From assembly GCA_000004695.1 (NCBI GenBank), contig CH709161.1, positions 1 through 8,929 of the forward strand: DNA of 8,929 nucleotides. The letters run 5' to 3'. Under the pieces are notes generated by a model. That model was not told the origin of the DNA. It saw only the letters and a list, made by a program, of their open reading frames with translations, and ran no database searches. Position numbers and translations under genes: made by a program. Source of the DNA: Dictyostelium discoideum (lineage: Eukaryota). Positions 1 through 8,929 of the stretch are shown here, one piece after another (positions within the stretch are counted from its first letter, which is position 1; each line of letters begins with the position of its first letter).

Positions 1-60
1 TTTTTTCATTTTCGGGCAGACTGAAAAAGCGAAAATGATTTCAATACATATTTTTTTAAA

Positions 61-399
61 ATGAATTCATCTGCAAATTTTATAGAACCAAATGGTAATG
101 TACCTGATTTTGACCAATCACCAATCCAAAGAAGAACAAACAATAATATTTCTATCGGAGATGAATCATTTAATAATTTGTCAATAGGTAATGTATTAGG
201 AAATGCAAATGTTCCAAACCCAATGGAAAACCAGAGAATAATAATTAGAAGAGTTCCAAGGCCAACTGTTCCACCAATCCAAGAAACAGTGCAAATAGCC
301 ACAAACCCACGTGTAACATACATATTGGAATACGAAAGTCTTCAGAAAGTTTGTCAAAGTAAATACTATTCAGATGGCGATGTATGTTACCAGATTAAT

Positions 400-431
<32 letters not shown>

Positions 432-732
432 CTTACTTAATTTAAATAAATAGGTTTCAAATTTCTTTATTACTGGAATAATTAAACAAGCAGGTGGTAG
501 TAACGAAGATTGTACCAGTCAAAATATTTTTGCAAGGTTAAAGTTTGTTGACTCTTGTAAAACAGGTGAAGAGAAACACTGGTACCCAGATTCAGTTCCT
601 TTAATAAAGAGATTAATTTCAATATTAAATGATTTTAGTAGTAAATTTGACTCTAAGGCTAAAATGAGAAAAGATGCACAAGAAGCTTTTCAATTTCCTC
701 ATTCTGCACTTTACTTAAATTCTTCCCAATAA
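61..732 (+). CDS. Two-exon gene for a hypothetical 199-aa protein. Exon 1 is 61-381, the intron is 382-453 (GTATGT...poly(A)26...AAATAG) and exon 2 is 454-732, ending in a TAA stop.
   Basis: ATG at 61 sits in an aaaATG context. The frame stays open to 453 and ends on a TAG, which is a rare stop in Dictyostelium. Directly after that TAG the same frame stays open for 92 more codons (454-729) with no ATG, and then ends with TAA. The codon usage is coding-like (ggt, cca, caa, aat). An in-phase GTATGT at 382 and an AG at 452-453 define a 72-nt, >90% AT intron that contains the 26-nt A tract. An AATAAA motif overlaps the stop. Confidence 0.6.
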
Positions 733-983
733 AAGTTTTAAAATAATTTTTAAAATTTAAAAATAAATTTTATTATTAAAAAATAATATATCTGTGTATT
801 TTATTTTTCACATAAAATTTTATTTCATACTATAGTTTTAAAATAATTTTTAAATTTTTTTTATTTATTTTTGTAGCATTATTAATAAGGTGCTTTTAAA
901 TGTAAATATTAATAAACTTTAAAATTCAATTTTTAAGGAGCTTTAAAATGTAATTATTAATATAATTTTTAATCATATTTTTA

Positions 984-1175
984 AGTAATTTTAAAGAGCA
1001 TTATAAAGTTAATTTTAAAGGGCATTTTAAACTTAATTTTAAAGAGAATTATAAAGGTAATTTTAAAGGTCATTTTAAAGGTAATTTTCAAGGTCATTTT
1101 AAAGTTAATTTTAAAGGTGATTTTAAAGGTAATTTTAAAGGTGATTTTAAAGGTGATTTTAAAGGTGATTTAAAA
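984..1175. repeat. Phased 12-bp minisatellite with 16 core units of consensus g-g-t-[a/g/c]-a-t-t-t-t-a-a-a. Diverged flanking copies extend to roughly 889-1262.
   Basis: The units gtaattttaaa/gagcattataaa/gttaattttaaa/gggcattttaaa...ggtgattttaaa x3/ggtgatttaaaa can be read directly as a 12-nt register. Related gtgcttttaaa and gagctttaaaa motifs lie upstream and ttgcttttaaa and gttgctttaaa downstream. Confidence 0.9.
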
Positions 1176-1470
1176 AATTGCTTTTAAATTAATTTTTAAG
1201 TGACTTTTTTATAGGACTTTAAATCCACTTTTAATTTAATTTAAAGTTGCTTTAAAGGTGTAATTTTCATCGCTGTGATAATATAAAACCCAAGGCAACT
1301 GAAACACTTATTTATGATTAATTAATAAAAATAATAATAATAGAATTCAATTGCCACTGAAACAAATAAATAAAGAATTAAAATTAATTTGGTTATCTTT
1401 TTAGTTTTTTTTTTTTTAATTTTCATAATTTTTTTTTTTTTTAATTTTCATAAAATTAAAAAGCATCACT

Positions 1471-1519
1471 AAAGCCAATTTAAAGCAAATTTAAATTGAA
1501 TTTGCTTTAAATTGGCTTT
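1471..1519. repeat. Inverted repeat (hairpin) of 49 bp. The arms are perfect 21-bp sequences (aaagccaatttaaagcaaatt and aatttgctttaaattggcttt) separated by a 7-nt spacer (taaattg).
   Basis: The arms are exact reverse complements of each other. The hairpin lies 20 bp upstream of a short GC-rich island (1540-1615) inside otherwise ~90% AT DNA. Confidence 0.85.
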
Positions 1520-1779
1520 AAAAATGCATTTTTCTTCGCTTTGTAACGTAAAAATTAGCATTTTAATCGCTTTAAAAGCGAGGTCCGGATTTCGAAGCCG
1601 TTATTTAACGGATAAATATTTTAAATTTTTTTTTTGAATTTTTGTAAACTATATTAGGAATAAAAATGAAAATAAAAATAAAAAAAAAATATTCTAAAAG
1701 AATTACAAACCTTTTTAAATGGCAATGTTCTTTTTTTTTATTGGCAATGGTTTATATATATATATATATTTTTTTTTTT

Positions 1780-1805
1780 AGATTTTCTAGATTTTCTAGA
1801 TTTTA
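1780..1805. repeat. Tandem 9-bp repeat agattttct in about 2.9 copies. It contains repeated TTCTAGA motifs.
   Basis: The sequence reads agattttct agattttct agatttta. A (TA)8 microsatellite lies at 1754-1769. Confidence 0.7.
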
Positions 1806-2494
1806 CATATTATTCTTTATTGGACCTTTCTGTGAATAATTGAATTAATTCTGAACAAAAAAAGTTATTTTTAAAAAGATAGAGTTACCCCGATCAATCT
1901 TTTCGCGAATAATTTTTCATTTTTCATATTATTTTTTTTTTAAATTTTTTTCATTTATTCACAATTAAAATAAAAAATATAATAAATAAATAAATAAAAT
2001 AAATAGTATTGACAAAAAAATCAAAAATACCGGGACTCAAATAAAGGATTTATTTTTTATATGTAGTTTTTTTTTTTTTAAGTTCTTTTTTTTTTTTCAA
2101 GTTTATTTTATTTTTATATTTTCTTTATTTCTCTATAAATACAACCAAATTTAAATATACGATAGGTCTTAACAAATATTGTTTAATATTATTTAAAATT
2201 TTTGTTTTAAATAATGTGTTTTATTAAAAAAAAAAAAAAAAAAAACATATGAAAAGTGAAAAATTTTTCAAAAATAAAAAATTTTTTTTCGAAATAACTG
2301 GATTTATTCCGGGATAACTCGATCTTTTTCAAAATAACTTTATATAGAATTAATTCAATTATCCACTGATAGGTTCATTTTAATAATGAATTAATTCTAA
2401 TTTTTTTTTTTTTTTTTATAATTATTATTCGTATTTCTATAATTAAAAACATGAATTTTATTATTCTTATTATATAATTAATTTTTTAATGATT

Positions 2495-3106
2495 TCATAT
2501 TTTATTTTTGTTATTAATACTGTTTAATTTTATACGACTTGAATGAAAAGTGTTTTGTGAATTATAAATTTTTTTTTTTATTTTTCTTTTTTTTTCAATT
2601 ATTTTAATTTTTTTCAATTTTTTAAAATATATATTTTTTTTTTTTTGGCTAATAATTCCTTTCTTGAAAATTTTAACTTTTTTTGGTTTTTGAGGGGAGT
2701 CATGTTTTAGGGATCTTAGGATGATCTGTTTGTTATGTTGAATTTTGATTGGAGACAACATGGGTACAATGACATTATCTGGATGGTTTGAAAGTGTTTG
2801 AGTGACAATTGCTTGTGTATTTGATGGTGTCTGAGTGACAATTGCTGGTGGATTTGATGGTGCTTGAATAACAATGGTTGGTGTATATGATGGTGCTTGA
2901 GTAACAATGGTTGGTGGATTTGATGGTGCTATGGTAACAATGGTTGGTGGATTTGATGGTGTTTGAGAGACAATATCTGGTGGATTTAAAGTCTGAACAA
3001 AAGATGATGATGTGTTTGAAGTTGGTGGTTGTTGCAAAGCATTTGTCAAATGATGAATATTGGATATATGTTCAATAGATGACACAAGTTGACGAGCAAC
3101 ATTCAA
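2495..3106 (-). CDS. Open frame rich in Pro/Thr/Ser/Gln repeats (…QTPSNPPTIVTIAPSNPPTIVTQAPSYTPTIVIQAPSNPPAIVTQTPSN…). The coding-like part is about 2700-3106. The ~200-nt AT-rich K-rich tail down to 2495 is doubtful.
   Basis: The frame runs about 135 codons with Dictyostelium-like codons (cca, caa, att, gtt) across the 33-bp repeats. The first codon is TTG, not ATG. No in-frame ATG occurs before residue ~112. There is no AG acceptor between the upstream in-frame TAA (3131-3133) and the ORF. The minus strand here is T-poor, so all three frames are open and ORF length alone is weak evidence. Confidence 0.35.
   Translation of the reverse strand: MNVARQLVSSIEHISNIHHLTNALQQPPTSNTSSSFVQTLNPPDIVSQTPSNPPTIVTIAPSNPPTIVTQAPSYTPTIVIQAPSNPPAIVTQTPSNTQAIVTQTLSNHPDNVIVPMLSPIKIQHNKQIILRSLKHDSPQKPKKVKIFKKGIISQKKKNIYFKKLKKIKIIEKKRKIKKKIYNSQNTFHSSRIKLNSINNKNKI
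2800..2995 (-). repeat. A 33-bp tandem repeat in about 5.5 copies. On the minus strand the unit is caccatcaaatccaccaaccattgttac(t/c)ca(a/g)g(c/a), which encodes PSNPPTIVTQA-like units.
   Basis: The plus-strand units tgagtgacaattgc(t)tgtgtatttgatggtgtc, tgagtgacaattgctggtggatttgatggtgct, tgaataacaatggttggtgtatatgatggtgct, tgagtaacaatggttggtggatttgatggtgct and atggtaacaatggttggtggatttgatggtgtt are read directly in a 33-nt register. Confidence 0.85.
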
Positions 3107-3174
3107 AGAAGGATTACAGGTAACAGATTTTTAAATAACATATTGGGGTATAGTAAGTAAACCTAATTCTTTCC

Positions 3175-3384
3175 TTAATTAACTTTTAAAGGATCATCTG
3201 GAATTGCGATTGCATTAAAATTGTAATTAGTAAGATCATACCCAATTTTCTTTGTAAAAGATAATAATATCTCAACAACTTTTCTATGGTTTGATAGGTA
3301 CAAATTTGATGTAAAAGAAGTTAAATCGTTTGAATCATTTGAATCATTTGAATCATCTAAATCATTGTACTGTGGTAAAATCAT
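3175..3384 (-). CDS. Short ORF of 69 aa, MILPQYNDLDDSNDSNDSNDLTSF…HRKVVEILLSFTKKIGYDL… It is hypothetical and may be a continuation of the same decayed element.
   Basis: It has an ATG start and (DSN)3 low complexity. HRKVVEILLS…KK weakly resembles the start of a chromodomain (..R.VEKIL…KG…YLVKW), but the remaining positions do not fit. It lies on the same strand as 3470-3706, 85 nt downstream, in another frame. Confidence 0.25.
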   Translation of the reverse strand: MILPQYNDLDDSNDSNDSNDLTSFTSNLYLSNHRKVVEILLSFTKKIGYDLTNYNFNAIAIPDDPLKVN

Positions 3385-3469
3385 GGGTTCTTTCCTTTGC
3401 TTGATTATAATGAACTAATTTATTTGGTCCAAGACATATCGGTTTTTTGTTTGTTATTAATAACATCCT

Positions 3470-3706
3470 CTAGAAATTGTATCCTATAGGTTTTTTATTG
3501 TTTTGATCATCATTATGTATTTCAATAATCTTGTTCTTTACCAATGTTTTCTTTTTATTTAATGTTTCTAATAAAAACACTGTATCACCAATTTTAAATT
3601 GTTTTTTTGTTGATTTTGATGACCAATTGTTTTTATATTTTTCAATATTTTTAAGAATAATTTCTTGTCTTTGTTTATATGATATATCTGGTATACTAAC
3701 TAACAT
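3470..3706 (-). CDS. Short ORF of 78 aa, MLVSIPDISYKQRQEIILKNIEKYKNNWSSKSTKKQFKIGDTVFLL… It may be a degenerate fragment of the C-terminus of a retrotransposon integrase.
   Basis: It has an ATG in an aaaaATG context. The pattern Q.RQ…KY.N…K.F.IGD.V.LL resembles the conserved '…QKKYADRKRR.VEF.VGDKVLL' block that follows the catalytic core of Ty3/gypsy-type integrases. It ends with a TAG, which is rare in Dictyostelium. This is by-eye similarity only. Confidence 0.35.
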   Translation of the reverse strand: MLVSIPDISYKQRQEIILKNIEKYKNNWSSKSTKKQFKIGDTVFLLETLNKKKTLVKNKIIEIHNDDQNNKKPIGYNF

Positions 3707-4199
3707 TTTTCTTCTATATTTACATGAAATCCATTATCTAATGTAGCTGTTTGAAATAATAATAATAACTGCATTTGCATTATTTGACCCTTCAATTATT
3801 ATTGTTAAAATTTCGATTTTACAAAATTATAATTTAAATGTTAGAGTAAGTTTTTTTTTTAAAAAAAAAAAAAATAATAATAATTAATATAAATAACAAA
3901 AAAAAAAAAAAAAAAAAGAAATAATAAAAAGTTATCTAATTTTCATTTTTTATTTTTTTTTTATAATTTCAAAAAAAAAAAAAAAAGAGATGGGAAACAA
4001 TTTATAAAAAAAATTTTTCCGATTGCTTGACAAGGTGACATGTCGATATCTCTGTGTTTTCTATAATTATATACTTCCAAGGCTAATTCTAAATAAGAGC
4101 AAATTGTTTGAGTTTTACATATATTTTCACTGTCATTACATTAGGTAAATAAATGATAGTAATTTAAAAAATATAGGGTGTATATTAGAAGAGGGTACT

Positions 4200-6343
4200 T
4201 ACTCTTCCTTATGAAAAAGTAGTCCAATACCACGCCAAAAACCTAGCTGCTCAAAGGCTACAATCCGCCCAGCAAGTCAACCTCCATACCACCAAAAGAC
4301 TATTTGAAGATACTGACGATCTCACTCAATCCCTCAAGCAAACATTAACAAAGAAGCGTAAGGAGCTAGACCAAGCACTCAACCACACCCAAAAAGAACT
4401 ACAGGAGCTAAGAAAATCACATGATAGTACGCAGAAAATGGCACAAAAGATCACTTAGAGATGTACTCTTAATGAAGAACTCGCCAAAGAGCTCCTTAAC
4501 TAAACCAAGCACAATAAATATACCATCGAAAGGATTATACCCGCTAGGCTAGATGCGCCAGCAACGCCTCAAAGAGGTTACTCAACAAATAAAACACGCA
4601 CAAGCAAAACAGATCGAAGTAACAAAGGGAATTCAAGAATGATCCCAGCAAATAAAACAGCTTCAAGCCCAAATTGATGGAATAAACAAGCAATACCAGC
4701 CTGCTAGTCAAACTAGGCCGCTAGAAGAAGTGGAGCGTGAGCAGCAAGCACTTGAAGCGAAACTACAGCAACTCCTCAACGATTTTAGGACAAAAAAAAC
4801 ACAGCTTGAGCAAGCCCAGAACCTAGCTCAAAAGGCCCAAGCAGATTTAGGGCAAGAAATAGCGCAAGAAAAAGCCAAACAAGAGCAATTGGAGGCGATC
4901 GAGAAAGAGCTAAAGGAACGCATTGAAGAAGGTAAAGTACTCAATGAGCAGGAACAAGAAGCTTGATTGATCAACAGCGCACCCCCAGCTGTTCATAGAT
5001 CTCAAAGCGCCCGAAGTACCGCATTGACTGAAAAAAAGAAAAGCTCTCTTGCATCGAAGAAAAGACGATCCGAGGCAGCTAGCCCATATGCGGCAACAGC
5101 AGCACCTTAACCTCAAAGAGAGGATGATCGCGCTTCAAAATGCACAAACCATGCGTGAGCAAGCAGCTAGAAGAAAGGTAGAGTTTACTAACTCTAACGC
5201 TTCTTGCTGTAAAACAAGAAGTACACCAATCGCAGCAAACATGAGAGCAAGAAAACAAACGCATCATCGAAGAGAATATTCAGGGTATAGAAGCGCTCAC
5301 CAAAGAGCCCCACCAGGATAAAGAAAGGGAGAGCAGAAGAGACCAAGAAGATGTAAAAAATACAAAGAGAAAACAGGAGTGGGAAAACAGGGCATGGTAT
5401 GTAAATTATGGGATTGGGTCAAAGAAAATCCCATTACCGCAACTATTGTAGGGATTCTGGCTGTGGGTGCATTGGTGTGTCTGGTTTCTTATGTGGCCCT
5501 ACCATTATTAAAAAGCAGCATCGCGTCAACGGGAGCTGGTGGCTTTTTTTGGTGGTTGTTTTCAAACAAAACCCGGCTTATCTGTCTTTGGCTCATTTGC
5601 TGGTAGATGGTTAAACAATAATCTACAACGGATTAATAATTGGGGCAATGGAAAAGGCTGGAAAACAAATGATGAGCTAAAAGCACCTTCCAAGAAAGAA
5701 TTTTAGCATCTAAAAACCAACTTGGATAGGAACTCCAAGGGATACAACGTGATCTGCAAGAGGCGAAAAGAAAGTAAATAGAGGAACGTGAAAAGGAAGC
5801 AGAAAAACCCGAGCAAGAGCAGGAAGAAGTTTCAGGGTAATAGTTAAACATCCTCGCTCAGCAATTCAATGCTACTTCTATGCAGCATGAGCCAATGCAA
5901 AACGTGACTAATCTGACCAAGCAGGCACAGGAATTGCTAAAACAATGGGATACAAATACGATGACCCTTCTCTATTCATGCAAAGCAGTGTTTTGCTAGA
6001 TCAGATGGATCAGCAGATAGCGCAAGTGGAGGAAGCTAAAGAAGAGGTCTTTTCTGGTGAATTTAAAGGGAATTTACCAAATCAGAAAAGCGGCCCCGCA
6101 ATCTCAACTCGATACACTCATACAAGCCAAAGAGCAGCTATATCAAAGATCATTCGAGATACGCAACAAGAAGCCATGGTATTTGAGCAAGACTTTGAAA
6201 AAATAACAAAGAAGCTCCATGATTTCTTATCCAGTCATGAGTACGTCCAAGAAGAATTTAAACCAACTACAACTGAGCAGCATGAACCTATCCTCACTAG
6301 ACCTACCATCGACTTGACAAACTCCCTCTCCCTAAGGCTTTAG
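4200..6343 (+). pseudogene. Decayed coding sequence of 2.1 kb with coiled-coil character (rich in Q/E/K/A/L). It is a degenerate gene or a retroelement ORF1/gag-like remnant. It includes a hydrophobic segment at 5379-5606 that looks like a transmembrane region, and one uninterrupted 132-codon stretch at 5945-6343.
   Basis: GC content rises abruptly at about 4195. The plus strand is A/C-rich and T-poor, so chance stops should be rare, yet TAG, TAA and TGA interrupt every plus frame about every 20-40 codons between 4200 and 4730. Surviving segments read as heptad-like text, for example MEREQQALEAKLQQLLNDFRTKKTQLEQAQNLAQKAQADLGQEIAQEKAKQEQLEAIEKELKERIEEGK. Internal modules such as 'caagcact.a.c…aactacag.a.ct' are repeated. 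The codons differ from the neighbouring host gene (ctg, gcc, ggg). Confidence 0.5.
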
Positions 6344-6498
6344 AAGAAACAATTATGCTGCTTGCCGAAAAGATGAGCTATAATGGTTTAAAATTGGATT
6401 TTAAACAAGCCAAGCAATTTGAATTTCCCAAATATTTAAGATAATTTTTTAGAATGTTCTAGAACATGAGAAGAATAAAAAATTTTCGAAAGAAAAGT

Positions 6499-6601
6499 AA
6501 AAATTTCGAACCGGCACAATGACGCGATCATTGCGCAAGGTCGAAAAACTGAAAAATTCCGAACCGACACTATGCACAAAGTTGTGAAGGGTCGAAAACT
6601 C
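6499..6601. repeat. Tandem duplication of a ~50-bp block inside the ITR-like region. Copy 1 (6499-6551) is aaaaatttcgaaccggcacaatgacgcgatcattgcgcaaggtcgaaaaactg. Copy 2 (6552-6601) is aaaaattccgaaccgacactatgcacaaagttgtgaagggtcgaaaactc.
   Basis: The two copies are about 70% identical and directly adjacent. Each begins with aaaa(a)tt(t/c)cgaaccg and ends with ggtcgaaaa(a)ct. Copy 1 contains a small hairpin, cacaatga-cgcga-tcattgcg. Confidence 0.8.
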
Positions 6602-6699
6602 TTATTTTTTTGAGTTTTGCGAAATTTTTAAGAAAATAAAAACGTATAAATAGTGGCACTAAAAACTAAAAACAATTTGATTTATGGAATTCCGACTAA

Positions 6700-6715
6700 G
6701 GGCGGGTGGGATGGG
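6700..6715 (+). other. G-quadruplex motif GGGcGGGtGGGatGGG at the inner edge of the ITR-like region. It lies 5 bp from a (TA)9 tract (6721-6738) and 45 bp from the YR stop.
   Basis: Four G3 runs with 1-2-nt loops are read directly. The motif is conspicuous in DNA that is otherwise about 80% AT. Confidence 0.7.
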
Positions 6716-6760
6716 ACTAATATATATATATATATTTAATATAAAATATAATTTAATAAA

Positions 6761-7680
6761 TTAAATGATTCTTTTATCGTAGAAGGTATCTACAGTATCA
6801 TTTGATTTCCAACGACCCATCTTCTTGACAACATGGAACGGAACGTTATTGGACAACAGCAGAGAAGCCATAGCGGAACGGGTAGAGTGAGATTTGAACT
6901 TGACAATATCAATGCCTGACTTTGAGAGCGTTGATAATACAATTGAGTTAATATCATTAACTTGGAGCGGTTCACCCTCATTCTTAATAAAGACAGAGTC
7001 ACCCGAATGGGGCTTTCTTCTTCCTTTTGAGGTTCTAAGGTATGTTGCAAGGTGGCGAACAGGGCATACTTGAGAGTTTGTATCATCTATCGAAGTTAAT
7101 TCTAAGATTGAAACAACACCACTTCTTTGTTCTTTAGCATTAATAACTGGACCTTTGATTGAGTCAGGAGTAATAATGAGACCTTTGAACGACCACTTCA
7201 CCAAGTCTGATGATCTTGGTAAACCAAACATTTTACAGAGTACAAGTGTCTTGTTTAATAGTGCAGTGTATGTGTACTTAGGGATGACTTTTATAGTAGA
7301 TAAGTGCTTGAATACTTGGTTTGCATCCCATATCTCTTTATACTTTGCTGATGAAGGACGCAACTTGTGAATACCAGTCATAATTCTTGTGATGAATGGA
7401 TCATTAACAATATCAGTTTGATTCTTAAGGAGTAACAACTGATTCAACATAGATCGATGACCATTAATTGTTGAGAAGGCTAACGGAGGTTGTGCTTGAA
7501 CAGATGTGTAAGATAATCCATGAAAACAACTAAGGTAATGTTTGCTGGATTCAAAGAGTTTAAAGTACAGAAATTGCGGAATCTTGTATAACTGGAGCTA
7601 TATACTTTGAGAGTTGAAGGTTCCCATGACTTCATTAACAGCTCAGCTGTTTTTGTATTTGTTGTACGAGCGAAGGACAT
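6761..7680 (-). CDS. Tyrosine recombinase of about 305 aa (DIRS/Ngaro/Cre-like). The N-terminal core-binding-like domain is MSFARTTNTKTAELLMKSWEPSTLKVYSSSYTRFRNFCTLNSLNPANITLVVFMDYLTHLFKHNL… and the catalytic domain is …AFSTINGHRSMLNQLL……GLPRSSDLVKW……KFKSHSTRSAMASLLLSNNVPFHVVKKMGRWKSNDTVDTFYDKRII. The two halves are in different frames, consistent with a 1-nt frameshift near 7485.
   Basis: The ATG is at 7680-7678. The N-terminal signature SW…STLKVY…RF.NFC…P…V.F..YL.HLF is present. The catalytic residues follow in order: Arg (LPRSSDL), HxxR (HSTR), W in the position of the second His (GRWKS) and the Tyr nucleophile (TFYDKR). Frame A stops at TAG 7480-7482. Frame B is open from at least 7560 and carries the rest. 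A single-nucleotide insertion at about 7484-7486 would fuse them as …THLFKHNL.LAFSTINGHRS…. Confidence 0.85.
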
Positions 7681-8929
7681 TACATGAGATTGGAAAGTTG
7701 AATAATCCCGAGCTTCCAACGTTGTTGAATCTGGATTGGTATCGACTCTACTGATTGTTTGGTCAATACTTCTTGGAATGTTCCCAGTACTTGAGGAAAC
7801 ATGTGGCGATGATGACGAGGAACTTGAGCTTGAATCATCGGATACCAAGTTGCTGATCTCCAGATTGGGAAGATCAGTATTATAGAAACCTTCTTCGAAC
7901 TGGATGAGTTCATCTTCTCCAGGATAGAAGGCAAAAGAATGGGTGGTGGAAAGGCCAAACATTGCTTCCATTGACTCTAATCGAGGTGGAGTGCATTCAT
8001 TCTGATTGTTGAGTAGTTGTTCGTTTGATGGTTGAGGTGAGATGCGAACAGATCCATCTGTATTTGACCGAAGTGAAGTTGGATGCGATTGAACACTTCC
8101 TTCTTCAGTTCCCAGTTGTAACTCTTGATTACTCTGGACGATGATTTGTGATTCATCTCTGAAAGACGGCTGAGGTGGTCGGCTTTTACATTGAATCCTG
8201 GAATATGCTCTCCAATCAAGTTCACTTTCTTTTTGAGGCATTGTTTCCATAGTTGTTCGAACAGAACTGAGAGATCTTGTATTTGACCACCCTGCCGATT
8301 GATGTAAGAGAGAGTGGCAGTGTTGTCGGTTTGAATCTTCAGCTTGCAGTTGTTCAGTTTCCGACATAGCGCTTGATAGGCCATTAGCAGTGCGAGCATT
8401 TCTCGACGATTTGATGACATGTTTGATTGAGTTGTTGACCACTGGAATGACCAAGTTTTGATTACCTTGTTTCCTTTCTTGAGAGTGGCACCTGCACCCG
8501 ATTCCGAGGCATCGGTTGTAAGAACATAGTCGTAACTTGGAAACAGACTGATTTCTTTTCCATTCCATTGGTTTAGAACTGTTAACCAATGTGAAATCTC
8601 TGACTTGACCTCTTGAGGAATGGGGGACGATTGATCCCAATCTCCATTGGCTAGAGTCAGACACTGAGAGTGAAACTTGTTTGTTCGACGAGTGTAAAGT
8701 CTGAATGGGATGACTGCATCTTTCAGTGCAATTAGCTTTCCTTTTAAACCAGCAAGCTTTCTTGGGGAGCAACAATCTAGTTTTAAAAAGTTTCTTATTT
8801 CTTTGATGACACTTTTCTTCTTTTCTTTGGGAACAAGAAGCTTCATTGATACCGAATCGATTTGTAATCCGAGAAACGTAATTGATTGAGTTGGTTCGAG
8901 AACGCTCTTTTCTAGGTTTAACTTGAGTA
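7680..8929 (-). CDS. Retroelement pol fragment, incomplete at the 5' end. It contains the RT C-terminal/thumb region (…ITFLGLQIDSVSMKLLVPKEKKKSVIKEIRNFLKLDCCSPRKLAGLKGKLIALKDAVIP…), RNase H (…VLTTDASESGAGATL…REMLALL…IQTDNTATLSYINRQGG…HIPGFNVKADHLSRL…) and a conserved post-RH segment (…IQMDLFASHLNHQTNNYST…[TAG]SQWKQCLAFPPPILLPSILEKM…ILIFPIWRSATWYP…). An in-frame TAG lies at 7977-7979 and the terminal TAA at 7680-7682.
   Basis: One frame (coordinate mod 3 = 2) is open from the window edge to 7977 and again from 7976 to 7683. The RNase H catalytic motifs D, E, D and H..D are all present in order. The frame extends upstream of the listed Met to 8929, giving LKLNLEKSVLEPTQSITFLGLQIDSVS, which is the RT region just C-terminal to the YxDD box. 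The TAG falls inside the conserved '…D[A/x]…W……AFPP' block. Confidence 0.85.

Follow-up and report, generated by a model that had tools for sequence, protein, structure and literature searches.

The stretch analysed (referred to below as the window) comprises 8,929 nt of D. discoideum DNA (GenBank accession number CH709161.1; coordinates 1 to 8929) and is very AT-rich, with 12-20% G+C between genes. A coding block was found to extend on the minus strand from position 6761 to the end of the window, and translation of its frames revealed that one of them encodes the C-terminal part of a reverse transcriptase (RT), RNase H and a Dam-like methyltransferase domain, with a tyrosine recombinase encoded in frames that overlap it. 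Phage_integrase (PF00589; E 4.7e-10) and RNase H domains were detected above the cutoff in a Pfam analysis, and the match to the Dam-like methyltransferase was weak and fell below it. When 5.8 billion proteins were searched, matches came almost exclusively from Dictyostelium, and included D. discoideum DIRS-1 fragments with 96-99% identity and a D. firmibasis protein with 87% identity. Between this coding block and position 6417 lies a series of features (Table 1) that had been predicted, from the sequence, to form the right-hand copy of an inverted terminal repeat (ITR). Scans of the window for tRNA genes and Rfam families gave no matches, and a scan for promoters and terminators of the bacterial type, which is irrelevant for a eukaryote, found nothing.

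Table 1. Features of the DIRS-1 copy in the window and of its immediate flank, with the positions of the G-run counterparts in the reference loci
Feature	Position	Strand	Remarks
Flanking DNA outside the element	6390-6416		End of the unrelated 4200-6416 stretch, abutting the truncated repeat
ITR body	6417-6693	+	277 bp remaining of the 321-bp repeat proper, read inward; common to left and right repeats
HSE, aGAAtgTTCtaGAAc	6451-6465		Three perfect inverted nGAAn units
Block copy 1	6500-6547	+	Imperfect palindrome
Block copy 2	6553-6598	+	More decayed
Core promoter block	6605-6659	+	55 nt, conserved in four species; holds TATAAATA at 6645-6652
Inner ITR boundary, GGAATTCC	6686-6693		Last bases common to left and right repeats
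Right-end-only spacer	6694-6717	+	24 nt between ITR and ICR; absent from left ends; contains the G-run
G-run, GGGcGGGtGGGatGGG	6700-6715	+	Sole (G3 N1-7)x4 motif in the window; 0.002 expected per shuffle
ICR remnant	6718-6766	+	49 of 57 nt complementary to the outer end of the full right terminus; includes the TA tract
83-bp deletion breakpoint	6766-6767		From alignment with four other copies (L001 and three in L002)
Recombinase ORF, C-terminal part	6761-7450	-	PF00589, E 4.7e-10; split from the N-terminal part
Rest of the copy	7451-8929	-	Recombinase N-terminal part overlapping the RT C-terminal/RNase H/methyltransferase-like ORF; runs off the window
G-run counterparts	L003 9580-9594; L004 9405-9420 and 9017-9032; L005 ~690-720		

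Loci around DIRS-1 proteins (L001-L006) were fetched from public assemblies as reference DNA. A full-length element of 4822 bp is present in the D. discoideum locus L002 (coordinates 1554-6375), the canonical length of DIRS-1 being 4814 bp (PMC7192593). This element carries a left repeat of 324 bp (1555-1878) and a right repeat of 321 bp (6026-6346), which are inverted relative to each other and identical at 317 of 320 aligned positions, and the right repeat is followed by an extension of 29 bp, for which the published length is 27 bp (PMC4482531). [quoted passage not shown]

Alignment with these copies established that a DIRS-1 copy occupies positions 6417-8929 on the minus strand of the window, with DNA ~97% identical to that of full-length D. 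discoideum copies. The coding sequence shares 96.9% identity with D. discoideum copies over 2167 nt, and positions 6417-6777 are ~97% identical over 361 nt to the right ends of three copies in L002 and one in L006. The segment 6417-6693 maps onto coordinates 6302-6026 of the full-length copy in L002, and shares 96-98% identity with five D. discoideum ITR copies, left and right ends alike. The left ends of other copies align as far as 6693 and no further, continuing instead with tcctatatatatttaagatacacaca and the start of ORF1, both of which are absent from the window copy. As the inner flank of the window repeat consists of the spacer and ICR sequence typical of right ends, and not of tcctatatatatttaagatacacaca and ORF1, this is the right end of the element. 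The original prediction of a right-hand ITR was therefore borne out by the inner flank and by the presence of the same sequence, inverted, at both ends of the L002 copy. Within the window, a search for an inverted copy of the ITR returned only low-complexity AT matches, and look-ups with three ORFs of the window yielded no sequence that continues the locus; the copy is read here without its left end, which is expected near 10,840-11,165, beyond position 8929.

The identity, boundaries, orientation and defects of the window copy are matters of direct observation. On the evidence of these sequence comparisons, it is highly likely (at a probability of about 0.93) that 6417-6693 represents the right ITR of a defective D. 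discoideum DIRS-1 copy with its genes on the minus strand. The feature is thus the long-known right terminal repeat of DIRS-1, in this case in a truncated, non-functional copy. Its closest known counterpart is the right ITR of DIRS-1/Tdd-1 (GenBank accession number M11339; Zuker et al. 1984; Cappello et al. 1985), and the likeness extends to the proteins, the ~97% DNA identity to full-length copies, the organism group, the length and layout of the repeat, the right extension, the 88-nt ICR, the inward-pointing heat-shock element (HSE) and TATA box, and an EcoRI site at the repeat's inner edge. However, the window copy is truncated by 73 bp at its outer end, has lost 83 bp spanning the ICR and the stop codon of the recombinase, contains a frameshift as well as a premature stop, and possesses three HSE units instead of four.

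Homology to DIRS-1 starts abruptly at 6417, and not at 6390, where the edge of the ITR had been placed; positions 6390-6416 were without a match to any DIRS-1 copy in the alignment with the fetched copies, and belong to the flanking DNA. Compared with full right termini, the window copy has lost 44 bp of the repeat as well as the right extension of 29 bp, with unrelated DNA in their place at 6416/6417, so that, contrary to the original prediction, its outer end is missing. From the ICR, the 83-bp deletion has taken the final 8 nt of the right-end half, together with the junction and the whole of the left-end half (34 nt); it also deprives the recombinase ORF of its final 16 codons, and has created the junction sequence AAATTA/AATGATTC at 6766/6767. 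The 49 nt that remain of the right-end half (window 6766-6718) match nt 9-57 of the L002 right terminus, counted from its outer end, with 100% identity, and the full 88-nt ICR complementary to both termini is absent from the window copy. Comparison with two intact L002 copies further identified the loss of 1 bp near 7492, which puts the long ORF out of frame and separates the C-terminal from the N-terminal part of the recombinase, and of 3 bp at 8196; a premature stop leaves the ORF3 frame open for 316 codons, as against 417 in intact copies.

An incomplete ICR makes the window copy defective, but does not speak against its descent from DIRS-1. DIRS-1 relies on the ICR to rebuild its ends when it replicates. 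As the outer 73 bp and half of the ICR are missing, the reading frames are disrupted, and the ICR is needed for retrotransposition (PMC7192593), the window copy cannot transpose. Between the HSE and the TATA box, the copy is nearly intact and shares ~97% identity with full-length copies.

The three-unit HSE that had been predicted at 6451-6465 is present, at least three contiguous inverted nGAAn units being found as GAAtgTTCtaGAA at 6452-6464. A fourth unit, which reads caTTCga in most copies, has been mutated to caTGAga in the window copy (6466-6472). The bare pattern GAAnnTTCnnGAA is insignificant alone, with 0.24 occurrences expected per shuffled window and at least one found in 45 of 200 shuffles. 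However, at least three units are kept in eight of nine D. discoideum ITR copies (and four units in six of the nine), and the HSE was accepted as real on this basis. Likewise, TATAAATA occurs three times in the window against 1.2 expected, and is unremarkable alone in such AT-rich DNA. The weight given to the HSE and TATA box thus comes from their conservation among copies. As predicted, the TATA box lies at 6645 on the same strand as the HSE, at a measured distance of 180 bp, and both are directed into the element, in antisense orientation relative to the genes for the recombinase and polymerase.

The length of this spacing had been taken to leave the transcription start site in doubt. Extrachromosomal DIRS-1 cDNA lacks ~300 nt of the left repeat (PMC7192593), and the TATA box begins at approximately position 273 in repeat coordinates, so a start ~27 nt downstream fits both observations and answers this doubt. 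From the position of the TATA box and the end of the cDNA (PMC7192593), we infer that transcription starts at ~6672-6680, ~27 nt past the TATA box. The repeat would act as an RNA polymerase II promoter that is read from its outer end inward. Judging by the motif, heat-shock factor is expected to recognise the GAA/TTC array (6451-6465), and the TATA box (6645) would set a start just before the inner edge of the repeat.

A duplicated block of ~50 bp with ttcgaaccgg cores had been described between the HSE and the TATA box. The duplication was recovered with a period of 53 nt and 37 of 49 aligned columns identical, and its local score of 33 was reached by none of 1000 shuffles (13.5 +/- 2.2). However, only copy 1 contains the ttcgaaccgg core, copy 2 having tccgaaccga in its place. 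The palindrome of copy 1 is formed by TTTCGAACC...GGTCGAAA around GCACAATGA/TCATTGCGC, and its DNA hairpin has a predicted energy of -10.8 kcal/mol (z -2.8 relative to shuffles). Copy 2 does not fold better than shuffled sequences.

Three sister species, D. firmibasis, D. dimigraforme and D. citrinum, were sampled with nine repeat copies (loci L003-L005). The DIRS-1-type elements of these species are like that of D. discoideum in the outer terminal sequence, the TATA core block corresponding to 6605-6659, GGAATTCC, the G-rich spacer and the ICR. They differ in that no perfect three-unit HSE was seen in them, that the ~50-bp block is present once, and that D. citrinum has three G-runs. None of the nine sampled copies (0/9) carries a perfect three-unit HSE, the corresponding place being occupied by GAAttTTCtgGAG in D. 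firmibasis and affected by deletions or substitutions in D. dimigraforme and D. citrinum. The ~50-bp block is single in all three sister species, and its duplication is specific to D. discoideum.

As no perfect HSE was found in the sampled sister-species copies, heat induction is not general to the element group. On comparison of these sequences, the perfect HSE may be a recent gain in the D. discoideum lineage, and if this is correct, the heat-induced antisense control would be species-specific. The pattern of conservation gives a hint as to which portions of the repeat have a part in replication and basal transcription, and which were added recently for regulation.

The original prediction also placed a G-quadruplex motif followed by a (TA)9 tract at the inner edge of the ITR. 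The G motif is present, and as a DNA oligonucleotide reads d(GGGCGGGTGGGATGGG). The TA tract at 6720-6735 can be read as (TA)7 at 6721-6734 or as (AT)8, but not as (TA)9. As the repeat ends with GGAATTCC at 6686-6693, the G-run and the TA tract are both located inside the element but beyond the repeat. The sequence rule of four runs of at least three G with loops of 1-7 nt describes the G-run, and every G-quadruplex motif found in the fetched loci belongs to the G-rich spacer box. This box reads GGGaGGGcGGGtGGG in D. firmibasis and GGGcGGGtGGGcaGGG and GGGaGGGtGGGcaGGG in D. dimigraforme, the G-tracts being kept and the loops differing. Four G-runs with differing loops are thus present in D. 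discoideum, D. firmibasis and D. dimigraforme; D. citrinum, represented by a single copy, has three, and a G-to-T change is present in one of the D. discoideum copies. The G-rich strand is the antisense strand, to which the minus-strand cDNA and the antisense RNAs correspond in polarity.

When the antisense RNA was folded with ViennaRNA allowing for G-quadruplexes, three tetrads were predicted, at -41.0 kcal/mol compared with -19.0 kcal/mol without the quadruplex. Folded as single-stranded DNA, 6640-6800 does not differ from shuffled sequences (z -1.5). The text of a D. discoideum quadruplex survey and a part of its supplements make no mention of a link between this G-run and DIRS-1. The G-run may form a quadruplex either within the minus-strand cDNA while this is single-stranded, or in the antisense RNA at its 5' end, and would then have a role of its own, which could, for example, be to help the termini to fold back on the ICR or to tune the stability of the antisense RNA. 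Taken jointly, a G-run quadruplex with a role of its own and a recent gain of the HSE in the D. discoideum lineage make a distinctly improbable combination, and the conserved G-run is regarded as a minor lead and not as a finding.

A different account of the G-run, tentative but worth weighing, is that it does not form a quadruplex and is either a protein-binding G-box, such as a binding site of GBF, a developmental factor, or a conserved part of the region that restores the terminus. The GBF element is (T/G)G(T/G)G(T/G)G(T/G) (PMC2257962), and GGTGGGA at 6705-6711 fits it at six of seven positions. A CA repeat occupies the equivalent place in left ends, and its complement, TGTGTGT, fits the GBF element perfectly. 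DIRS-1 RNA accumulates in development (PMC3950715), and the presence of only three G-runs in the one D. citrinum copy would also be in keeping with a G-box. Against this, the right-end spacer is without a perfect GBF match, four G-runs are kept in the other species while the three loops between them vary, and the quadruplex-aware fold strongly favours the three-tetrad structure.

The promoter activity, heat induction and small-RNA link of DIRS-1 are established in the literature. Both ITRs are strong promoters, stronger than the actin15 promoter, and are also strong when isolated on plasmids (PMC4482531). A 4.5-kb mRNA is transcribed from the left repeat, and antisense RNA from the right repeat, namely the 4-kb lasDIRS-1 and, upon heat shock or stress, the 900-nt E1 (PMC3950715). 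Going by the title of Zuker et al. as cited in PMC2175303, a heat-shock promoter in the repeats was reported in 1984. The opposing ITRs and their transcription give rise to siRNAs, and small RNAs of ~21 nt silence the element (PMC4482531, PMC2175303), mapping over its whole length (PMC2175303). That a heat-inducible antisense promoter and small-RNA control are known for DIRS-1, as had been stated in the original prediction, agrees with the published work (PMC3950715, PMC4482531). In the proposed sequence of events, the promoter at the right end would make RNA that is antisense to the recombinase and polymerase genes, as E1 or lasDIRS-1, and this RNA would pair with sense transcripts and feed the RNAi pathway that keeps DIRS-1 silent. 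The arrangement can be compared with that of another heat-activated element.

In ONSEN, a heat-activated retrotransposon of Arabidopsis, heat-shock-factor sites in the terminal repeat tie transcription to stress, as in DIRS-1. However, terminal repeats of the ONSEN type are direct and lead to sense RNA only, whereas the DIRS-1 repeats are inverted, so that antisense RNA arises from the right-end promoter.

To judge from its sequence, the window copy may still contribute antisense RNA, as little has changed in its promoter segment between the HSE and the TATA box. It probably lies in DIRS-rich heterochromatin, and hence may be silent. DIRS-1 clusters are heterochromatic and centromeric, and the right repeat is methylated (PMC7192593, PMC3950715). 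These properties, the missing outer 73 bp, the deletion that removes half of the ICR, the frameshift and premature stop, and the loss of one HSE unit would all suit a functionally inert heterochromatic relic, a DIRS-1 right repeat by descent in which the motifs persist as fossils. That the copy is wholly inert in this way is nevertheless unlikely, as the segment between the HSE and the TATA box retains ~97% identity to full-length copies with three HSE units remaining, ITRs placed on plasmids by themselves show strong promoter activity (PMC4482531), and small RNAs are found along the entire element (PMC2175303). The junction of the 83-bp deletion, ~90 nt past the predicted start, provides a unique tag for copy-specific transcripts in RNA data, and could show whether dead copies still supply antisense RNA.

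That the region could instead represent a left repeat or a host heat-shock promoter, and drive sense transcription of something else, is scarcely credible and was rejected on the alignments: although the left and right repeats are near identical (317/320), making the promoter part alone indistinct, and a three-unit HSE can occur by chance, the right-end spacer and ICR are followed directly by the stop codon of the recombinase, which is encoded on the other strand, whereas in left ends this place is taken by tcctatatatatttaagatacacaca and the beginning of ORF1, and there are no plus-strand ORFs of at least 80 aa downstream. A solo repeat was ruled out by the contiguity of the region with the recombinase gene. 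With the region read as the right repeat of a defective DIRS-1 copy, the analysis provides an exact map of one degenerate copy, giving the bounds of the repeat, spacer and ICR, and the losses. Beyond correct annotation this carries little weight, as the DIRS-1 repeats, their heat-shock promoter, the antisense RNA and the link to RNAi have been studied since 1983-84.

The DNA that abuts the truncated repeat (4200-6416, plus strand) is a 2.2-kb stretch of 42-47% G+C that is strongly A-rich. Its translation resembles that of a degenerate gene for a coiled-coil protein with a hydrophobic hairpin of two helices, interrupted by many in-frame stops and frame changes. In Pfam, it gave only weak matches to DUF3927 and IFT57, which were below the cutoff and treated as noise, and a word-indexed search of 5.8 billion proteins found no homologue. 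The only match in an exhaustive HMMER search was the prediction for the same locus in another D. discoideum assembly. Positions 4200-6414 are 97% identical to L006 8197-10433, and the L006 contig stops at the junction with the repeat.

Other features were observed further upstream in the window. An ORF on the minus strand (2495-3106) includes approximately six copies of a 33-nt (11-codon) coding repeat at 2779-2987; positions 2645-2792 are 90% identical to L001 662-810, and the whole of the 2495-3106 stretch recurs at 97% identity in L006. A tandem array of ~17 copies of the 12-nt unit ATTTTAAAGGTA is located at 977-1175 (more widely, 886-1260), and related arrays are found near DIRS-1 clusters in L001 (~15100-15850) and L006 (~6850-7630); the array may be a dispersed satellite-like repeat. 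Finally, an apparent host gene of two exons (61-381 and 454-732, plus strand) encodes a product of ~199 aa, and its intron (382-453) has the form GTATGT...TAG and contains a run of A27.
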